DNA of 64,000 nt from a virus (lineage: Duplodnaviria > Heunggongvirae > Uroviricota > Caudoviricetes): positions 1 through 64,000 of the IMG/VR virus record IMGVR_UViG_3300013105_000002; one strand, given 5' to 3'. The translations under genes were made by a program, and so were the position numbers. Under the pieces are notes generated by a model, which saw only the letters and a program-made list of their open reading frames with translations, was not told the DNA's origin and searched no databases. Positions 1,572 through 45,809 of this stretch are shown piece by piece (position 1 is the stretch's first letter; each line of letters opens with the position of its first letter).

Positions 1572-1655
1572 GCGGGTGTGGTGGAATTGGTAGTCACGCC
1601 GGATTTAGGTTCCGGTGCTCGTGAGAGCGTGTCGGTTCGAGTCCGACCATCCGTA
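1572..1655 (+). tRNA. tRNA-Leu (anticodon TAG), type II long variable arm
   Basis: hand-folded cloverleaf: acceptor gcgggtg/catccgt (2 GU), anticodon stem ccgga/tccgg loop tttaggt, T-arm gtcgg-ttcgagt-ccgac. Confidence 0.65.
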
Positions 1656-1793
1656 CAGATGTTGAAGCGTTGCGCAACGTGAATACATTCAGGATACAAT
1701 AGTTCAAGAAAATAGCCGCAGGAAGATAGAGCGCCTATTAATACTAGTTAATGGAAATGCACATTTATAGGTTGGGCTTGTATCCGAAACAAT

Positions 1794-1876
1794 GCCGGTG
1801 TGGTGGAATGGCAGACACGCTAGATTCAAAACCTAGTTCCCGCAAGGGAGTACGAGTTCAAGTCTCGTGGCCGGTA
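1794..1876 (+). tRNA. tRNA-Leu (anticodon CAA), type II; imperfect acceptor stem
   Basis: anticodon loop ttcaaaa, variable arm tcccgcaaggga, T-arm acgag-ttcaagt-ctcgt; acceptor has a G-G mismatch and 2 GU, so possibly degenerate. Confidence 0.5.
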
Positions 1877-1890
1877 CTTTAAGTAAATAT

Positions 1891-1976
1891 GCCCCCATGG
1901 CGAAACTGGAATCACGCAGCAGGCTCAGACCCTGTGCATTAAGTTGCTCTCGGTTCGACTCCGAGTGGGGGTACCA
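1891..1976 (+). tRNA. tRNA-Leu (anticodon CAG), type II, encoded CCA
   Basis: acceptor gccccca/tgggggt, anticodon stem gcagg/cctgt loop ctcagac, T-arm ctcgg-ttcgact-ccgag, ends ACCA. Confidence 0.65.
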
Positions 1977-11542: not shown

Positions 11543-11616
11543 GCCTTCTTAGTTCAATGGCAGAATATTTCTTTCGTAATGAAAAGATGCGTGTTCGACT
11601 CACGTAGAAGGCTCCA
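11543..11616 (+). tRNA. tRNA-Thr (anticodon CGT, tentative), encoded CCA
   Basis: acceptor gccttct/agaaggc perfect, T-arm gcgtg-ttcgact-cacgt, anticodon loop ttcgtaa with one stem mismatch. Confidence 0.5.
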
Positions 11617-11642
11617 CCGGGTTCGTATGGTATACTGGCTCT

Positions 11643-12011
11643 ATGGCTTACAAAGACAAGCAACAGCAGCGAGAATTCCAGCGAGCATGGAGAACAAAGA
11701 GAAGGTCAGAGTATTTTCAGGGCAAGTCCTGCGCGGTCTGTGGATCGGTAGAGAGTCTTGAACTGGATCACATCGACCCTTCTCAGAAGAAGTACAACCC
11801 AGCAGCACTGTGGGGAATGTCAGACGACAATCCAAACAAGATCGCTGAGTTTGCCAAGTGTCAGGTTTTGTGTCTGGACCACCACAAGGAAAAGACTAAG
11901 GCTTGGCACGAGGCCAATAGAAGCCACGGAAGATCGTGGTACGCATATGGATGCAAGTGTGATATTTGTGTAGAGGCTCAAAGGCTACACAACGCACAGA
12001 GGTATTCATAG
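11643..12011 (+). CDS. HNH homing endonuclease
   Basis: CAVCGS...LELDHIDP...NLQ-like...CLDHH motifs; inserted between two tRNA-Thr genes. Confidence 0.8.
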   Translation: MAYKDKQQQREFQRAWRTKRRSEYFQGKSCAVCGSVESLELDHIDPSQKKYNPAALWGMSDDNPNKIAEFAKCQVLCLDHHKEKTKAWHEANRSHGRSWYAYGCKCDICVEAQRLHNAQRYS

Positions 12012-12017
12012 CGGATT

Positions 12018-12089
12018 GCCCCGTTAGTTTAAATGGTATAACTTGTCCTTGGTACGGACAGATTACGTGTTCGATTCACGTACGGGGCT
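12018..12089 (+). tRNA. tRNA-Thr (anticodon GGT)
   Basis: acceptor gccccgt/acggggc, anticodon stem tgtcc/ggaca loop ttggtac, T-arm acgtg-ttcgatt-cacgt. Confidence 0.7.
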
Positions 12090-12146
12090 CGCGCCAGCGC
12101 CCGCTGGTTGTTTCGCAAGATTGACTCCAAAAAGGAGAAACACACT

Positions 12147-15065: not shown

Positions 15066-15136
15066 GGGATATAGATGTTGTGGCCGCATGTCACCTTGCC
15101 ATGGTGATCGCACGGGTTCGATTCCCGTATATCCCT
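15066..15136 (+). tRNA. tRNA-Gly (anticodon GCC)
   Basis: acceptor gggatat/atatccc, anticodon stem tcacc/ggtga loop ttgccat, T-arm acggg-ttcgatt-cccgt. Confidence 0.75.
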
Positions 15137-15138
15137 CT

Positions 15139-15210
15139 GAGTCCGAGCCGGAGGCATCAGGAGTTGCACTGTGACTGCAATTATCGTGGGTTCGAATCCC
15201 ACCGGACTCC
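15139..15210 (+). tRNA. tRNA-His (anticodon GTG)
   Basis: acceptor gagtccg/cggactc, anticodon stem ttgca/tgcaa loop ctgtgac, T-arm gtggg-ttcgaat-cccac. Confidence 0.7.
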
Positions 15211-15227
15211 CTCAATAAAGGAGAATC

Positions 15228-22647: not shown

Positions 22648-22741
22648 GAAAGTCTTTGAGAAGGGCTTGACAGGCGGTTGACGAGCGTGTAGTGTTGGTC
22701 TTGTTGGAGGGAATGGCCCTCCTGAACTAAGGAGAATGACT

Positions 22742-23707
22742 ATGGCTTCCAAGAAGTACGCAGTGGCTTACCGTCAGGATGGCGGTCGTCCGTGGATGGG
22801 CCTTCCGGGTGTCACCACTTCTGGTGGCGACCTTCAGACCATGTTCAAGAACGCCGGTCTGGCTGACTGGAACATGCAGAAGCGTCTCATCGACACCGGG
22901 GCCTTCACCGACTCGCCCGATTTCGAAATCGTGCGTGATAACCCTGCCGAGGGTGGACGCTTGGAGCGTCTGCACGTGTCCAAGGAGCGGTACGAACTGT
23001 ACCCCAACGAGAACGTGCTGGCCTTCGTGGACAACGTGGCTTTCGGCAATCTGGAAGCCGATGCCATGGGCACGCTCAACAACGGTCGCAAGGTCTTCAT
23101 GTCCTTCAAGGTCGGTGACGACGTGGAGGTCAAGGGCACGGACGACAAGATCGCCACGTACCTGCACGTCCGCACCTCGCACGACGGCTCGTGGGCCTTC
23201 GGTACCTACTCCGGTCAGTACCGTCTCGCCTGCCAGAACCAGTTGACCTCCATCAAGGCAAACGCGATTTCCTCATTCACCATCCGTCACACCAAGACCA
23301 TGGAGGGTCGTGTGGAGGATGCCCGCGTTGCTCTCGGTCTCTCGATCAAGCAGTCCGACCTGTTCCTCACGGACATGGCCGTGCTGGCTGACTCCAAGAT
23401 GACGGATTCCAAGTTCTGGGCTCTCGTCAAGGACATTTACCCTGAGCCCCAGAAGGACGTGAAGGGTTCCAAGGCCAAGTGGGAAAGCAAGACGGACACC
23501 ATCATGGGTCTGTGGAACGGTCCCACTGTCGCCAACCTTGACAAGAACGCGTACCGTGCCTACAACGCGCTGAACGAGGAACTGATGTGGTACGCTACGG
23601 TCCGTGCCGGAAACGTGGAGAACGCTCTGGCTCGCACCACTGGCTTCGATGCCACCACGCAGCGCCACAACGTGGACCTTTACCGTAAGGTTCTGGCTGC
23701 TGCCTGA
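22742..23707 (+). CDS. DUF932-like protein
   Basis: RBS AAGGAG + ATG 22742; VRTSHDGSWAF motif; GC-rich island. Confidence 0.6.
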   Translation: MASKKYAVAYRQDGGRPWMGLPGVTTSGGDLQTMFKNAGLADWNMQKRLIDTGAFTDSPDFEIVRDNPAEGGRLERLHVSKERYELYPNENVLAFVDNVAFGNLEADAMGTLNNGRKVFMSFKVGDDVEVKGTDDKIATYLHVRTSHDGSWAFGTYSGQYRLACQNQLTSIKANAISSFTIRHTKTMEGRVEDARVALGLSIKQSDLFLTDMAVLADSKMTDSKFWALVKDIYPEPQKDVKGSKAKWESKTDTIMGLWNGPTVANLDKNAYRAYNALNEELMWYATVRAGNVENALARTTGFDATTQRHNVDLYRKVLAAA

Positions 23708-23718
23708 TCCATCGTAAA

Positions 23719-26060: not shown

Positions 26061-26390
26061 AAAGACATAGTATAGGTATAGAAAACAAAGGTCTAGAGGT
26101 ACAAATGGATACTTCCTTGTACATAACTTGGGACAAAGGCTGAAAAAGAAGGGCCTAGTCGAAGAACAAGCATATTGCTATGAAATGGCGACACCCCATA
26201 TGAAGGCTTTTTAGCGCTAAAATGATGAATAAATCTGCTTTATTGGACCAAAATGAGCCAAAAAGCAGAGATTCGGGCTACAAAATGGCCCAATCGTAAT
26301 GGCTACAGGAAAATTCGGGCTATTTGGGCCTCCATCGTAAAGGGGCCTTCCGATGTGAGAATGGTTTTCATTATTTGAATCCCCAAAGAG

Positions 26391-26445
26391 ATACCCCGGG
26401 GGTATGGTGTTTTCTATACTCTTCTTTGGTATACACTGGGGGTAT
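26391..26445 (+). repeat. two operator-type palindromes without promoter (ATACCCCGGGGGTAT 26391-26405; ATACACTGGGGGTAT 26431-26445)
   Basis: same ATACCC-N-GGGTAT family as downstream array. Confidence 0.6.
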
Positions 26446-29911: not shown

Positions 29912-29990
29912 ATACCCTTGGGGTATTTGTATTGATACATACCCCGGGGGTATTGTCAGGGCTTGACGGATGACTCTGAGGTGATAGTCT
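29912..29990 (+). promoter_or_regulatory. operators + promoter P8 (leaderless)
   Basis: ops 29912-29926, 29939-29953 (plus inverted copy 29903-29917); -35 TTGACG 29963-29968; -10 TAGTCT 29985-29990; ATG 6 nt later. Confidence 0.6.
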
Positions 29991-31162: not shown

Positions 31163-31263
31163 TTCCCGAGGGTATCTACATACCCCAAGGGTATAGGATC
31201 ACACAAAACAAATACCCCATGAGGTATGGATGGGCTTGACAGGTCTCTGGGAACTGATAGTCT
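31163..31263 (+). promoter_or_regulatory. three operators + promoter P11 (leaderless)
   Basis: ops 31163-31175, 31180-31194, 31212-31227; -35 TTGACA 31236-31241; -10 TAGTCT 31258-31263. Confidence 0.6.
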
Positions 31264-32611: not shown

Positions 32612-32758
32612 ATACCCTAGGGGTAAATTCGGCTCCTAGAATCGCTTATCGTAAACGGTCTGTTCGCTATCCCCCAAGGGTGCACATACCCTCGTGGGAT
32701 TTGATATACCCTTGGGGTATGCCAGACAGGTTGACACGTCCCGGCATGTGAGTAGACT
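32612..32758 (+). promoter_or_regulatory. operators + promoter P15
   Basis: ops 32612-32626, 32686-32700, 32706-32720; -35 32731-32736; -10 TAGACT 32753-32758; leader with RBS GAGGAAA. Confidence 0.55.
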
Positions 32759-37190: not shown

Positions 37191-37243
37191 ATACCCTCGG
37201 GGTATCCCAAAGTATTGACAAAAGCGCCGGTAGCAAATAGGCT
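37191..37243 (+). promoter_or_regulatory. operator + promoter P29
   Basis: op ATACCCTCGGGGTAT 37191-37205; -35 37215-37220; -10 TAGGCT 37238-37243. Confidence 0.55.
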
Positions 37244-37491: not shown

Positions 37492-37550
37492 GAAGAAGGC
37501 CCGAAGAAATTCGGGTCTTTTTTCTTTTTATCGTAAGCGACCATCATGAC

Positions 37551-37623
37551 ATACCCCCGGGGGAATTCGGGTTGTTTTGGGCTCTATCGTAAATGAGCCT
37601 TTTGATATACCCCCGGGGGATAT
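37551..37623 (+). repeat. two variant operator copies (ATACCCCCGGGGGAAT 37551-37566; ATACCCCCGGGGGATAT 37607-37623) abutting the DnaA-box cluster
   Basis: each preceded by ATCGTAA(A/G) motif. Confidence 0.5.
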
Positions 37624-37728
37624 CCACAGGATATCCACAGCTGTGGATAAGTTGTGGATAAGTTATCCACAGCCTGTGCAAAAGTTATCCACAGGTTGTC
37701 CACATATGGGGATAACCCCTGTGGATAG
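37620..37728. promoter_or_regulatory. cluster of 8 DnaA-box 9-mers (oriC-like / DnaA-binding region)
   Basis: ATATCCACA x2 (37620, 37631), TGTGGATAA x2 (37642, 37653), TTATCCACA x2 (37663, 37685), TTGTCCACA (37696), TGTGGATAG (37720). Confidence 0.7.
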
Positions 37729-37847
37729 GATTCACAGGAAAGTCTTTCCGAGATTGGCCCGTTTCGGGGTTACAGGTCTCCCCTATGGGGTATGTTTGTC
37801 ATGTAGGGCGGCGCACACGGCGCGGCTCACGACACGGAGGTACTGAC

Positions 37848-38468
37848 ATGGCTGCTAAGGGTCGTCCGACCACAAACCCGATGGCGCTGGACCGCAAGGC
37901 AATGGCTGCCGAAATCAACATCCTTTCGGCAACGGAGTCCGACCCCATCGCTCGCGTTGCTGGCGTTGTCGCCATCATGGAACGTCACGCGGACGGGTTC
38001 GCTTACGCCACGGCATCCAACGTTCTTGGGAACGGTCTCCGGGCGGACGTTCGGGACGCGATGGTTAAGGCTCAGGACGGCCAGTGCTTCACGTGCGGCG
38101 TGACGCTCAACAACGCAAAGCACATGCGCCAGACTGAGGCTGTGCTCTTCCGTCTCGTCCCTTCCATCGTCGGCGCGGATCACTTCGTGGCAGGCAATGA
38201 CGCGATGGCGGCAGGCACGGTCCCCGGAAACGTCGTGGCCGTGTGCGCACACTGCAACCGAAAGCGCAACGCCGCGAGCGCTGCAATGGGTACGCCCGTG
38301 TGCGTCACGTCCGACGTTCTCCACGCTGACTCGGACGGGCCGGTCATGCTCAACGCAACGCGCATTCTCTACGTCTGGCCCGCCACGCCCAAGGCGCGCG
38401 ACACGGGCAAGGGTGACGCGGTGATGGCCGACCGGGATGCGGCTCGCGTGTCGGTTCTCGGATGGTGA
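37848..38468 (+). CDS. HNH-like nuclease (putative)
   Basis: RBS GGAGG + ATG 37848; CFTCG...ADHFVAGND...AVCAHCNRKRN pattern. Confidence 0.45.
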   Translation: MAAKGRPTTNPMALDRKAMAAEINILSATESDPIARVAGVVAIMERHADGFAYATASNVLGNGLRADVRDAMVKAQDGQCFTCGVTLNNAKHMRQTEAVLFRLVPSIVGADHFVAGNDAMAAGTVPGNVVAVCAHCNRKRNAASAAMGTPVCVTSDVLHADSDGPVMLNATRILYVWPATPKARDTGKGDAVMADRDAARVSVLGW

Positions 38469-38484
38469 ATCCGAAATAAGAATC

Positions 38485-38510
38485 GGGCCGGTCCCTACGG
38501 GGACCGGCCC
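38485..38510 (+). terminator. rho-independent terminator
   Basis: gggccggtccc tacg gggaccggccc + attcttttg. Confidence 0.65.
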
Positions 38511-38679
38511 ATTCTTTTGCCTCGTTTGAGGTGCCTGGACGCCCTTCTAAGCGACTTTCGTGCGAAACCCTACCGGAAACCCATGGGCGCACTATTCCGC
38601 CGCCACGGGCCCGCCAGCGGCCTGTATCATTACAGAGACAGATTTTTTAACATTTTGCACATTGAAAATTGTTGATCGA

Positions 38680-43877: not shown

Positions 43878-45809
43878 ATGCAATACATGGAAGGATTTAT
43901 CCACAATGGCGACCTAACTGACCCGTTCAGGTCGTTCATTTCGAAGTCCAGATACGCCCGCTGGATTCCGGAAGCAAACCGTCGAGAGACATGGGAAGAG
44001 ACTTCCCACCGATACGCCGATTTCATCGCGCCGAAGGTCGGACTGTCACCCGAGACAAAGGGCGAACTGATCAACAAGATCATGCAGCATGAGGTAATGC
44101 CCTCAATGCGTGCAATCATGACCGCTGGCGAGGCGCTAGAGCGTAGCAACGTCGCTGGCTACAACTGTTCATTCATCGCAATCGATGACCTACGAGCCTT
44201 TGACGAGGCTCTGTACATTCTTATGTGTGGTACCGGGCTAGGTTTCTCCGCTGAGAAGAAGCACGTTCGTTACTTGCCAGAGGTTCCTGCCTCCATTGAG
44301 GCTTCAGAGACGGTTATCGTTGTTGAGGACTCCAAGGAAGGTTGGGCACGAGCATACCGCGAGTTGATTGAAAGCCTGTTCCGTGGCGAACTGCCTAAGT
44401 GGGACTTGCGTCAGTTGCGCCCAGAGGGTGCACGTCTAAAGACTTTCGGTGGACGTTCATCTGGTCCAGCACCTCTGAATGAACTGTTTGAGTTCACAGT
44501 GGCAATGGTTGCCGGTGCACGTGGCCGTCGTCTAAAGCCAATTGAGGTTCATGACCTCATGTGCAAGATCGGATCGGTAGTTGTTGTAGGTGGCGTGCGC
44601 CGCTCAGCACTTATCTCTCTATCTTCACTGACTGACGAGGACATTCGTGACGCAAAGTCCGGTGAATGGTGGCAGGACTACCCACACCGTGCACTTTCAA
44701 ACAACTCCGCAGTCTACAACTCAAAGCCGAGCCGTTCTGAGTTTGACCGTGAGTGGGAGGCATTGGTTGCTTCTGGTTCTGGTGAGCGTGGAATCTTCAA
44801 TCTCGCGGGTGCGCGTGCGCACGTGCCTGAGCGCAGAGACGAATCACAGATCATGGGAACCAATCCTTGCGCCGAGATTCTTCTTCGCTCTATGGGATTC
44901 TGTAACCTGACAGAGATTATCGTCCGTGAGGGCGATGACCTAGAGACTTTGAAGGAAAAGGTTCGCTGGGCAACTCTCATCGGTACGTGGCAGTCTACGC
45001 TAGTAAACTTCCCTTACCTGCGTGAAGAGTGGAAGAAGAATGCAGAAGAGGAACGTCTTCTAGGCGTTTCCATGACCGGCCAGATGGGACACCCTGTTCT
45101 AAACGGTCGTTCAGGCCGTGCCGAGCGCAAGAAGTGGCTTCAGGAACTGAAGAAGGTTGCTATTGCCACAAACAAGAAGGAAGCACGTCGTCTGGGCATC
45201 AATCCAGCAGCGGCTATTACTACAGTAAAGCCGTCCGGTACCGTTTCCACACTAACGAATACCGCATCTGGAATGCACGCATGGCACGACGATTTCTACA
45301 TTCGCACCGTGCGCTGCGACAAGAATGACCCGATTGCTCGCTTCATGGAGGACGCGGGTGTGCCGGTGGAGGATGACGTTATGAATCCAAAGGCAGTTGT
45401 GTTCTCATTCCCGTTCAAGGCTCCGGAGGGTGCTATCACACGTAACGACCAGAACGCCATCGAGCAGTTGGAGAACTGGCTTGACTACAAGATGTACTGG
45501 ACAGAGCACTCTCCGTCCGTTACCGTCTCTGTAAAGCCAGAGGAATGGAAGGAAGTTGGTGACTGGGTATTCAAGCACTTTGATCTGGTCACTGGAATTT
45601 CATTCCTGCCTTACGCGGATCACGTGTACAAGCAGGCTCCATTCCAGACTGTCGATCAGGCCACCTATGAGGCTGCAAAGGCAGAAATGCCTGAGGTTCT
45701 AGAGTGGGACTGGCTTCCAATGTACGAAAAGGAAGACACGACCACTGGATCACAGACTCTTGCCTGCACCGCTGGTGTGTGTGATGTTGTCGATCTAATC
45801 AAGTCATAA
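43878..45809 (+). CDS. nrdJ: ribonucleotide reductase, class II (adenosylcobalamin-dependent, monomeric type)
   Basis: RBS AAGGAGA; GFCNLTE active-site loop, C-terminal CTAGVC pair; no beta subunit nearby. Confidence 0.7.
   Translation: MQYMEGFIHNGDLTDPFRSFISKSRYARWIPEANRRETWEETSHRYADFIAPKVGLSPETKGELINKIMQHEVMPSMRAIMTAGEALERSNVAGYNCSFIAIDDLRAFDEALYILMCGTGLGFSAEKKHVRYLPEVPASIEASETVIVVEDSKEGWARAYRELIESLFRGELPKWDLRQLRPEGARLKTFGGRSSGPAPLNELFEFTVAMVAGARGRRLKPIEVHDLMCKIGSVVVVGGVRRSALISLSSLTDEDIRDAKSGEWWQDYPHRALSNNSAVYNSKPSRSEFDREWEALVASGSGERGIFNLAGARAHVPERRDESQIMGTNPCAEILLRSMGFCNLTEIIVREGDDLETLKEKVRWATLIGTWQSTLVNFPYLREEWKKNAEEERLLGVSMTGQMGHPVLNGRSGRAERKKWLQELKKVAIATNKKEARRLGINPAAAITTVKPSGTVSTLTNTASGMHAWHDDFYIRTVRCDKNDPIARFMEDAGVPVEDDVMNPKAVVFSFPFKAPEGAITRNDQNAIEQLENWLDYKMYWTEHSPSVTVSVKPEEWKEVGDWVFKHFDLVTGISFLPYADHVYKQAPFQTVDQATYEAAKAEMPEVLEWDWLPMYEKEDTTTGSQTLACTAGVCDVVDLIKS

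Follow-up and report, generated by a model that had tools for sequence, protein, structure and literature searches.

DnaA is present in almost all bacteria, and this near-ubiquity would make it a convenient universal handle for phages. Its binding sites, the DnaA boxes, are clustered in the DnaA-assisted origins of plasmids and plasmid prophages, such as P1 oriR, pSC101, F, and RK2, as well as at non-origin loci with high-affinity boxes, such as datA of Escherichia coli and the DnaA-box clusters of Bacillus subtilis, which hold about 5 to 9 boxes over 0.5 to 1 kb. Among virulent phages, the only case of conserved terminal DnaA boxes described in the literature that we searched is the injection-stop region (iss) of T5: this untranslated part of the terminal repeat carries about eight boxes, paired at a distance of 3 bp, which are retained in 25 T5-like phages (Davison, 10.1101/866236). 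Davison proposed, without experiments, that membrane-bound DnaA halts the first step of T5 DNA transfer (10.1101/866236), and we confirmed two of the box pairs inside the annotated iss of NC_005859. Here, we describe an array of DnaA boxes at positions 37620 to 37728 of a 64,000-nucleotide sequence from a tailed soil phage (IMG/VR record IMGVR_UViG_3300013105_000002, positions 1 to 64,000), a stretch that we refer to as the window.

The locus shares several features with T5 iss. Both belong to large lytic siphoviruses whose genome is linear and ends in direct repeats (predicted for the window), both form a large untranslated region rich in repeats and palindromes, located at the edge of the repeat behind a terminator, and both hold conserved DnaA boxes in close pairs 2 to 3 bp apart, about eight in T5. 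Yet the phage families are unrelated, the host here is actinobacterial, and there is no homology to A1, A2, or dmp of T5. Moreover, ten boxes are contiguous within 109 bp, whereas T5 has two pairs about 50 bp apart and others 3 kb away; the boxes are convergent here, and those of the BE1 relatives lie just outside the terminal repeat instead of inside it. With plasmid origins and oriC, the array has in common clustered consensus boxes in helical phase, direct repeats nearby, and a predicted dependence on the host initiator, and its convergent sub-arrays resemble the two halves of E. coli oriC. It differs from them in having no adjacent AT-rich unwinding element, no DnaA-trios, and no conserved box number, and general Pfam and PHROGs scans of the window open reading frames (ORFs) turned up no Rep or other initiator, dnaA, or dnaN. 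As at datA-type loci, a non-origin cluster of boxes could reduce free DnaA; in contrast to them, ten boxes are packed into 109 bp of a virulent phage, at a position tied to the genome terminus. The presence of DnaA boxes at replication origins of plasmids and phages, and within T5 iss, was already known; what we did not find in the literature searched is a contiguous ten-box convergent array that is conserved in an actinophage family and linked in position to the terminal-repeat boundary. Full-text searches likewise gave no publication that deals with DnaA boxes of Streptomyces or BE phages.

Composition of the array and its probable ligand

The array is, with a probability that we put at roughly 0.85 to 0.9, a conserved cis-acting platform on which host DnaA would dock, at the junction of unique DNA and the terminal segment of the genome. 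A search of the 64-kb window for TTATCCACA with up to one mismatch places nine 9-mers in the array, four perfect and five with one mismatch, and reading the sequence adds a tenth, degenerate box. The boxes and the two halves that they form are as follows.

37642 (-), 37653 (-), 37663 (+), and 37685 (+): perfect boxes, TTATCCACA/TGTGGATAA
37620 (+) and 37631 (+): one-mismatch boxes, ATATCCACA
37696 (+): one-mismatch box, TTGTCCACA, the actinobacterial form
37707 (-): one-mismatch box, TTATCCCCA
37720 (-): one-mismatch box, CTATCCACA
37675-37683 (-): degenerate tenth box with two mismatches, TGTGCAAAA
37620-37671: left half, boxes 1 to 5, ATATCCACA (+), ATATCCACA (+), TGTGGATAA (-), TGTGGATAA (-), TTATCCACA (+)
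37685-37728: right half, TTATCCACA (+), TTGTCCACA (+), TGGGGATAA (-), TGTGGATAG (-), a four-box unit common to the relative L010

The tenth box occupies the sole 22-bp gap of the array and preserves a phasing of 10 to 12 bp. Successive box starts are 11, 11, 11, 10, 12, 10, 11, 11, and 13 bp apart, about one helical turn each; therefore, all sites are expected on one face of the helix, and close, helically phased spacing, which would allow cooperative binding, is present across the array (10 to 13 bp). The orientations read ->-> <-<- -> (<-) ->-> <-<-, that is, convergent head-to-tail pairs. An earlier reading made from the sequence only had described eight boxes within 110 bp, four perfect, one actinobacterial, and three with one mismatch. 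The cluster, its two orientations, and its place in a non-coding stretch of the phage are all confirmed, while the count rises to nine boxes with at most one mismatch plus the tenth with two.

The same reading considered this density to exceed that of random sequence, and the comparison with expectation that it had proposed, run here on the window, agrees: there are 19 one-mismatch matches per 64 kb against 12.5 in shuffles, nine of them in the array and ten in the remaining 63.9 kb. The shuffles correspond to 0.021 matches per 109 bp, which gives a Poisson P(>=9) of about 2e-21. Only one of the ten matches outside the array is perfect (43897-43905), and it is probably incidental. We rejected this box as a regulatory site for ribonucleotide reductase, given that it lies inside the coding sequence of that enzyme (GFIHN) and is kept as protein in locus L009. 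The array as a whole is quasi-palindromic, with 44-nt arms that are 77% complementary, and the folding energy of its single strand is -31.9 kcal/mol (z = -6.2). An Rfam search returned only noise (E at least 0.33), and an exact 31-mer from the array was not found in IMG/VR.

A Pfam scan of the 105 window ORFs contained no Bac_DnaA_C domain among the best 25 of 28 families, and a query with an approximate sequence of domain IV of E. coli DnaA retrieved nothing from the window or from the whole genome of the related Streptomyces phage Belfort. Since no DnaA-like domain appears to be encoded by the phage, host DnaA is the likely ligand. A caveat concerns affinity. In Streptomyces and Mycobacterium, DnaA binds with high affinity to TTGTCCACA (PMC4285127, Table 1). 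At position 3 of this consensus, eight of the nine boxes carry A or T instead of G, and these phages mostly use TTATCCACA, one step from TTGTCCACA. The point also weighs against the start of DNA synthesis considered below.

Conservation among relatives and position relative to the genome ends

DNA searches, near and distant, of the 36- to 40-kb region against 50,697 phage records gave no match; therefore, relatives were sought by protein similarity and by conserved short DNA motifs. In the capsid protease, identity is about 51% to the proteins of 127 Streptomyces cluster BE phages and of a few Rhodococcus phages. The gene order matches that of Belfort, window 0.6 to 30.5 kb corresponding to Belfort 81 to 115 kb and window 39.2 to 64 kb to Belfort 0.9 to 26 kb, so the window crosses the junction of both genome ends. 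The window proteins are those of a large virulent siphovirus (rIIA/rIIB, ThyX, class II ribonucleotide reductase, glycosyltransferase, endolysin, portal, capsid protease, major capsid, tail proteins, CCA-adding enzyme, and a WhiB-type regulator), and the WhiB-type regulator indicates an actinobacterial host. An ENA contig of 131,368 bp, k141_4075598 of assembly ERZ27252505, is probably the whole genome; the 420 bp that precede the HNH-like gene, array included, are identical in it and in the window. Judged by these sequence comparisons, the phage is a lytic actinophage of roughly 131 kb and a distant relative of the Streptomyces cluster BE phages (Stanwilliamsviridae).

Five other metagenome assemblies, from ENA and JGI, contain the array unchanged or with few changes (L014/L152 and L148 to L151), so it is not an assembly artefact. 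It is identical in L014/L152, L149, and L150, and in L148 and L151 the changes are confined to the weak box 8, a single base of a spacer, and the bases that directly follow the array; across assemblies, the perfect boxes are constant, while the weak box and the spacers vary. A more divergent strain variant, L013 (Ga0157373_10369056, nt 245-500), has lost one 11-bp unit from the left half, and its right half is replaced by three ATGCATG palindromic repeats, a new convergent box pair, and an extra 86-amino-acid ORF before the HNH-like gene. The relative L010, an IMG/VR contig of 126,890 bp with a ThyX that is 77% identical, has the same promoter, terminator, ATCGTAA units, and HNH-like gene around a single four-box unit, ->-> <-<-. 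This unit aligns with the right half of the window array, which therefore looks like an expansion of it.

In BE phages, a small box cluster lies in the large non-coding gap that ends the right arm. BillNye carries TTATCCACAgggTTTATCCACAacTGTGGATAA plus a lone box 250 bp further, Belfort has three boxes plus one, the isolated boxes of both phages lying 200 to 250 bp downstream, and Wofford, Karimac, Yaboi, and StarPlatinum have one convergent pair each. In the complete Belfort genome, the right-arm cluster is the sole tight multi-box DnaA cluster; the only other 200-bp interval with two matches holds two one-mismatch sites about 150 bp apart. Clusters are found at the syntenic place in all six of these phages and in L043, L083, and L091. 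By pattern scan, L091 (GC 0.40) has 12 boxes and L083 has 2, both upstream of the right-terminus motif described below, and L113 has 13 boxes 6.3 kb downstream of its ThyX gene, the terminus motif being undetected in that locus. The number of boxes thus ranges from 2 to 13 among relatives. Boxes persist where the flanking DNA is no longer alignable, and their shared core is the convergent arrangement.

Some further repeats accompany the boxes of these relatives. At the BE1 loci (L136, L138, L140, and L142), conserved iteron-like direct repeats, GATTTTTAGTCA in 2 to 3 copies and ATAAGAC in 4 to 5 copies, lie 150 to 400 bp upstream of the boxes. Just after the boxes, Belfort (121.85-121.96 kb; L002 21850-21960) and BillNye (L006) keep a non-coding stretch, AAGTTACTCGACAGT..AAAAGCTCTGTACGCC..TTCTAAGAGCC, beyond which AGTTACTCG-like copies recur.

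The deposited genomes have direct terminal repeats that are exact duplicates, with lengths of 733 bp (Belfort), 2,262 bp (BillNye), and 11,214 bp (Wofford); the ends of BE1 phages were defined from reads (PMC5764925). The right ends of all three genomes coincide with the end of a motif, ATGGGCGCACTA-N34-..TAT, and in the left copies this motif is followed by CATACATC..AACATTT, homologous to the window from 38628 onward. Three features of the window relate to the ends (a slash marks a boundary here and below).

37744-37754 (+): CTTTCCGAGAT motif, whose homologue in BE1 phages comes directly after the last box, exactly 60 bp ahead of the repeat start
37803/37804 (no strand): predicted left boundary of the terminal repeat, ..GTTTGTCATG/TAGGGCGG, placed with low confidence by the 60-bp rule given below and by similarity to ..GTGTGTAATG/ of BE1 phages
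38583-38627 (+), core 38583-38594: right-terminus motif, ATGGGCGCACTA-N33-..TGTAT, found once in the window and also in L010 (reverse strand)

After the motif, the window reads ..CTGTAT/CATTACAGAG..AACATTTTG, and L010 has a homologous continuation. Since the motif occurs once, the physical right end is predicted at 38627. The right end is nearest to the box cluster in the window (0.9 to 1.0 kb) and in L010 (1.0 kb), followed by L083 and L091 (about 3 kb), then by L043, Belfort, and BillNye (6.7 to 7.6 kb), and by Wofford (11.3 kb); hence, in all relatives with the terminus motif, the boxes lie within the last 1 to 11 kb before the right terminus.

The left side of the repeat shows a stricter relation in BE1 phages. 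Wofford, Karimac, Yaboi, and StarPlatinum have CTTTCT(G/C)AGAT behind the last box, and their terminal repeat begins exactly 60 bp past the box, right after ..TAGTGTGTAATG/, although the intervening 60 bp vary in sequence. The BE1 box pair is present in a single copy, 60 to 80 bp outside the terminal repeat. If the window followed this rule, its terminal repeat might measure 824 bp and hold the HNH-like gene only, with the array 75 bp outside. The left cut of Belfort (..GTGTAATA/GTGC) and that of BillNye, however, lie 5 to 6 kb from the boxes, and no boxes are found near the Belfort cut, so boxes and cut site are separable. What is seen in the relatives is untranslated, repeat-rich DNA with conserved boxes at the edge of the terminal repeat; the window array lies 0.9 kb from its predicted end.

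Possible roles of bound DnaA

Bound DnaA might start phage DNA synthesis at the array, the role to which we give the most weight. The array would then act as a duplex origin, aided by transcription from two promoter-like units that point into it. Alternatively, the displaced strand would fold, and a hairpin stem with duplex DnaA boxes would serve as a loading site of the "ABC-primosome A-site" type, a concept from the plasmid literature, for the phage DnaB-like helicase and primase. A rightward fork from the array would traverse the terminal repeat and then run co-directionally with almost all genes; we infer that the near-universal rightward gene orientation fits such a fork. In favor of an origin are the tight cluster, unique in Belfort, the direct repeats upstream of the boxes (the 56-bp units in the window and GATTTTTAGTCA and ATAAGAC in BE1 phages), the promoter-like units aimed at the array, and its hairpin potential. 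The Belfort annotation lists a DnaB-like helicase, a primase, SSB, a DnaE-like Pol III alpha subunit, and DnaQ, and it lists no initiator or loader. If the array is an origin, it would be the first one mapped for the family, and a phage DnaB/primase/Pol III set would be started by the host initiator.

Several results weigh against this role. No AT-rich unwinding element flanks the array: by nearest-neighbour stability, the least stable flank is at the 93rd to 95th percentile of the window, and the least stable sites of the window lie away from the array. Neither is there a run of three or more in-phase DnaA-trios between 37480 and 37860. The sequence-only reading had called the cluster oriC-like, and on both counts this label fails, although the DnaA-type array in non-coding phage DNA that it described is real and conserved in relatives. 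Its two proposals, a phage origin that recruits host DnaA and a DnaA sink, are both among the candidate roles weighed here. GC skew gives no origin signal and was discarded as a guide; both in the window and in the Belfort genome as a whole, it follows only the direction of transcription. General Pfam and PHROGs scans found no dnaA or dnaN family among the window ORFs (for the 105-ORF Pfam scan, among the best 25 of 28 families). The replication genes of the relatives are more than 60 kb away. Relatives have anywhere from 2 to 13 boxes, and one strain variant lacks a unit and has half of the array replaced; this looks less like an origin of precise construction than like a capacity or dosage element. 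Finally, the origins of T5 map to the middle of its genome even though T5 has terminal DnaA boxes (10.1101/866236). Given the absent unwinding element and the T5 precedent, we hold the origin tentatively, at less than even odds.

Other roles take the position near the terminus as their starting point. As in the proposal for T5 iss, partly membrane-associated DnaA could bind while the linear DNA enters right end first, halting or tethering it so that the terminal segment is exposed or expressed first, or, more broadly, anchoring or protecting the incoming end. We rank this close behind the origin, though as unlikely on balance. The terminal segment past the boxes holds 0.9 kb with the HNH-like gene in the window and 7 to 11 kb of small genes in BE phages. 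The boxes keep to the last 1 to 11 kb before a conserved right terminus, exactly 60 bp outside the repeat in four BE1 phages and, by prediction, 75 bp outside it here, where the end would be 0.9 kb away. The region shares the richness of iss in repeats and palindromes, Berlinvirus A7 and Vibrio phage BD1 also have terminal boxes, T5-like phages keep eight boxes in the untranslated iss (10.1101/866236), four of which we found again in NC_005859, and the 11-kb repeats of BE1 phages were likened to those of T5 in the BE1 genome paper (PMC5764925). Nevertheless, the T5 mechanism is itself a proposal without experiments, and a phmmer search of the window and Belfort ORFs for homologues of A1, A2, and dmp gave nothing better than E = 0.019. 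The BE1 boxes lie outside the repeat in one copy only, so entry would have to be right end first; a first step of 0.9 kb would be very short; and SPO1, which also has long repeats, has no DnaA-box cluster in its terminal repeat. To our knowledge, two-step injection has never been reported for the Stanwilliamsviridae-like family.

The exact spacing in BE1 phages would also suit a part in terminus formation or packaging, with DnaA acting as a host architectural factor, like IHF at lambda cosB, to position the left-end cut 60 to 75 bp downstream. This seems improbable to us. The last box is invariably 60 bp from the repeat start in four BE1 phages despite the variable intervening sequence, the box-CTTTCYGAGAT junction is also present in the window, and an HNH gene adjoins the terminus. 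However, these four phages form one genus, so shared ancestry may explain the constant spacing, and in Belfort and BillNye the left-cut motif is 5 to 6 kb from the boxes, which makes cutting independent of them. A different possibility, quite unlikely in our view, is a DnaA sink or sensor. DnaA is titrated by datA and by the Bacillus DnaA-box clusters, and complexes of DnaA with its boxes can block RNA polymerase, as known from work on asnC and dnaA. The array would titrate host DnaA as phage copies rise and stop host initiation, or a DnaA roadblock or switch would tie read-through into the HNH-like gene and the terminus to the level of host DnaA. The very high local density of sites and the variable box number suit a capacity role, the array is directly preceded by a terminator and two promoter-like units and followed by the HNH-like gene, and many unrelated viral contigs have similar arrays of up to 13 boxes. 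Yet BE1 phages retain just two boxes at a fixed position, needless for a pure sink and tied to the repeat in a way that argues against one. Moreover, the downstream content differs by lineage (the HNH-like gene here, an extra ORF in L013, strong promoters in Belfort, the start of the repeat in Wofford), so no single gene is consistently regulated. We are as doubtful as about terminus formation that the repeats are not DnaA sites at all, being bound instead by a phage protein or acting only as a DNA or RNA hairpin. The convergent layout does yield a strong hairpin, and the region encodes many small phage proteins without an assigned function. Nonetheless, exact 9/9 consensus matches recur in lineages with unalignable flanks, lone boxes occur 200 to 250 bp downstream in Belfort and BillNye, the same 9-mer with an extended ..AGTTATCCACAGG context is found in arrays of unrelated phages that differ in GC content, and Rfam offers no match above noise.

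The docking platform, which all roles but the last presuppose, has counterparts in other viruses. An IMG/VR scan for TTATCCACA-N2-3-TGTGGATAA returned at least 120 loci against about three estimated by chance; about 25 of the loci listed have at least 6 boxes per 150 bp, up to 13, with 2- to 3-bp spacers. Arrays of 8 to 13 boxes per 150 bp occur at GC contents from 0.31 to 0.65 (for example, L016, L060, L071, L101, L105, L106, L113, L114, L129, and L133). Among the loci listed, 13 box pairs lie within 300 bp of contig ends against 5.5 expected, a modest excess that could reflect real termini or assembly breaks at repeats. A query with the window array also matched records of the Lactococcus 949 group, Arthrobacter, Klebsiella, Vibrio, and Microviridae. 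Shigella phage A7 (L144, MK685668), a T7-like Berlinvirus, has nine direct DnaA-like boxes at nt 22 to 165, in the terminal-repeat region of its left end, and Vibrio phage BD1 (L145, PV244424) has three perfect boxes in the last 90 nt of its right end. These arrays share with that of the window the 9-mer, the 2- to 3-bp spacers, a similar extended context, and, in several cases, proximity to genome or contig ends; they differ in that most belong to unrelated phages and many are all direct instead of convergent. The literature search found no study of them.

Together, these cases raise the possibility, which we rate as rather unlikely, that DnaA-box arrays evolved independently and repeatedly as an element near the termini of linear phages that have direct terminal repeats, where host DnaA acts as a brake, anchor, or marker at the repeat boundary instead of opening a classical origin. 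Such phages would include the T5-like ones, some T7-like Berlinviruses, Vibrio phage BD1, and the whole Stanwilliamsviridae-like lineage with the window phage. In such an element, DnaA could control stepwise entry, shield the end that enters, or seed the DNA synthesis by which the terminal repeat becomes duplicated; if true, this would be a general use of DnaA by phages. In any case, a second, unrelated family of large terminally redundant siphoviruses keeps an element of this type, many of its members are culturable on Streptomyces, the relation to the repeat boundary is fixed at 60 bp in one sub-family, and dense arrays are common in uncultivated viral contigs. The T5 puzzle, that is, the stop in first-step transfer and the purpose of the boxes, thereby becomes comparable across systems and testable.

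Flanking features and gene order

Around the array, the window contains the following features.

37215-37243 (+): last strong host-type promoter of the long rightward early region, TTGACA-N17-TAGGCT, from the pattern scan; promoter and 5' leader are kept in L010
37279-37491 (+): small gene of 70 amino acids, from the ORF list and also called in independent assemblies; last gene of the rightward region before the array
37492-37523 (+): intrinsic terminator with a 14-bp stem, a GAAA loop, and a T-run; its core, GGCCCGAAGAAATTCGGGTCTTTTT, is identical in L010, L013, and L014
37530-37623 (+): two repeat units 56 bp apart, ATCGTAA (37530-37536 and 37586-37592), 14 nt, and the palindrome ATACCCCCGGGGGAWT (37551-37566 and 37605-37623)
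37848-38468 (+): HNH/endonuclease VII-like gene of 206 amino acids, with weak PHROG matches (best E 3.5e-5)
38485-38510 (no strand): bidirectional intrinsic terminator, from the terminator search

The promoter at 37215 drives the 70-amino-acid gene, which has no Pfam or PHROG match. The matches for ORFs near the array include no Rep-like family, many small ORFs having no assignment. The T-rich tract that the sequence-only reading placed beside the cluster exists and is relabelled here as the tail of the intrinsic terminator. That reading's palindrome overlapping box 1 is the second one of the repeat units (37605-37623), a member of the ATACCC-N-GGGTAT family; the pair of ATCGTAA and palindrome recurs behind other terminators from 23.7 to 37.6 kb of the window, and L010 has the same layout with ACCCTNAGGGT palindromes. 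A further palindrome (37777-37793) lies between the CTTTCCGAGAT motif and the HNH-like gene. As for the gene that had been read downstream as HNH-like, it is present, while its HNH identity is weak, the PHROG match mentioned above being the best one and both Pfam and PDB giving none. It is the sole gene between the array and the predicted right end, its L010 homologue occupies the same place, and an HNH gene is likewise the last one before the right end in Wofford. Beyond about 38.6 kb, genes point leftward, including that of ThyX.

The pattern scan of the window found 55 promoter-like sites of the form TTGACN-N16-18-TANNNT, against 4.6 in shuffles, 47 of them on the + strand. Those on the + strand extend from 400 to 37243, are densest from 26.4 to 37.2 kb, and number roughly one per small gene; Belfort has 88 such sites from 60 to 121 kb, ending just short of its DnaA boxes. 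We rejected an arrangement with minus-strand genes at 31.6 to 37.2 kb and a divergent promoter at 37.2 kb, since about 20 strong plus-strand promoters and the gene calls in other assemblies show small plus-strand genes there; given this promoter density, the minus-strand calls made from the longest ORFs are spurious.

Palindromes of 16 to 17 bp, ATACCC(N2-4)GGGTAT, occur in one to three copies just upstream of the -35 element of early promoters from 26.3 to 37.8 kb of the window (for example, 26390-26405, 29938-29953, 31195-31230, 32700-32725, 37192-37207, 37551-37566, 37605-37623, and 37777-37793). L010 uses ACCCTNAGGGT in their place, and they look like an operator family that co-varies with a putative regulator. 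The motif ATCGTAA(A)G is found on the + strand only, at 23711, 25474, 25667, 26293, 26334, 29875, 31143, 32648, 35155, 37530, and 37586, typically after a GAAA-loop terminator and with AAATTC about 19 nt upstream. It may be a candidate second promoter class, resembling a -10 element of the extracytoplasmic function (ECF) type, and a related motif, TTCGTAAAGG, is frequent in Belfort from 98 to 121.5 kb.

Seven tRNA genes are located in the right arm (three for Leu, two for Thr, and one each for Gly and His; window 1572-1976, 11543-12090, and 15066-15211). A DUF932/DUF945 gene (phrog_1221) at 22736-23707 lies 13 to 14 kb from the boxes, as in Belfort, and genes 3 and 261 of Wofford are of this type, the distance to the boxes being 1.5 kb in that phage. 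A gene of this type is also found 0.6 to 6 kb from DnaA-box arrays in about ten otherwise unrelated IMG/VR loci, among them L041, L048, L060, L082, L087, L101, L111, L126, and L133.

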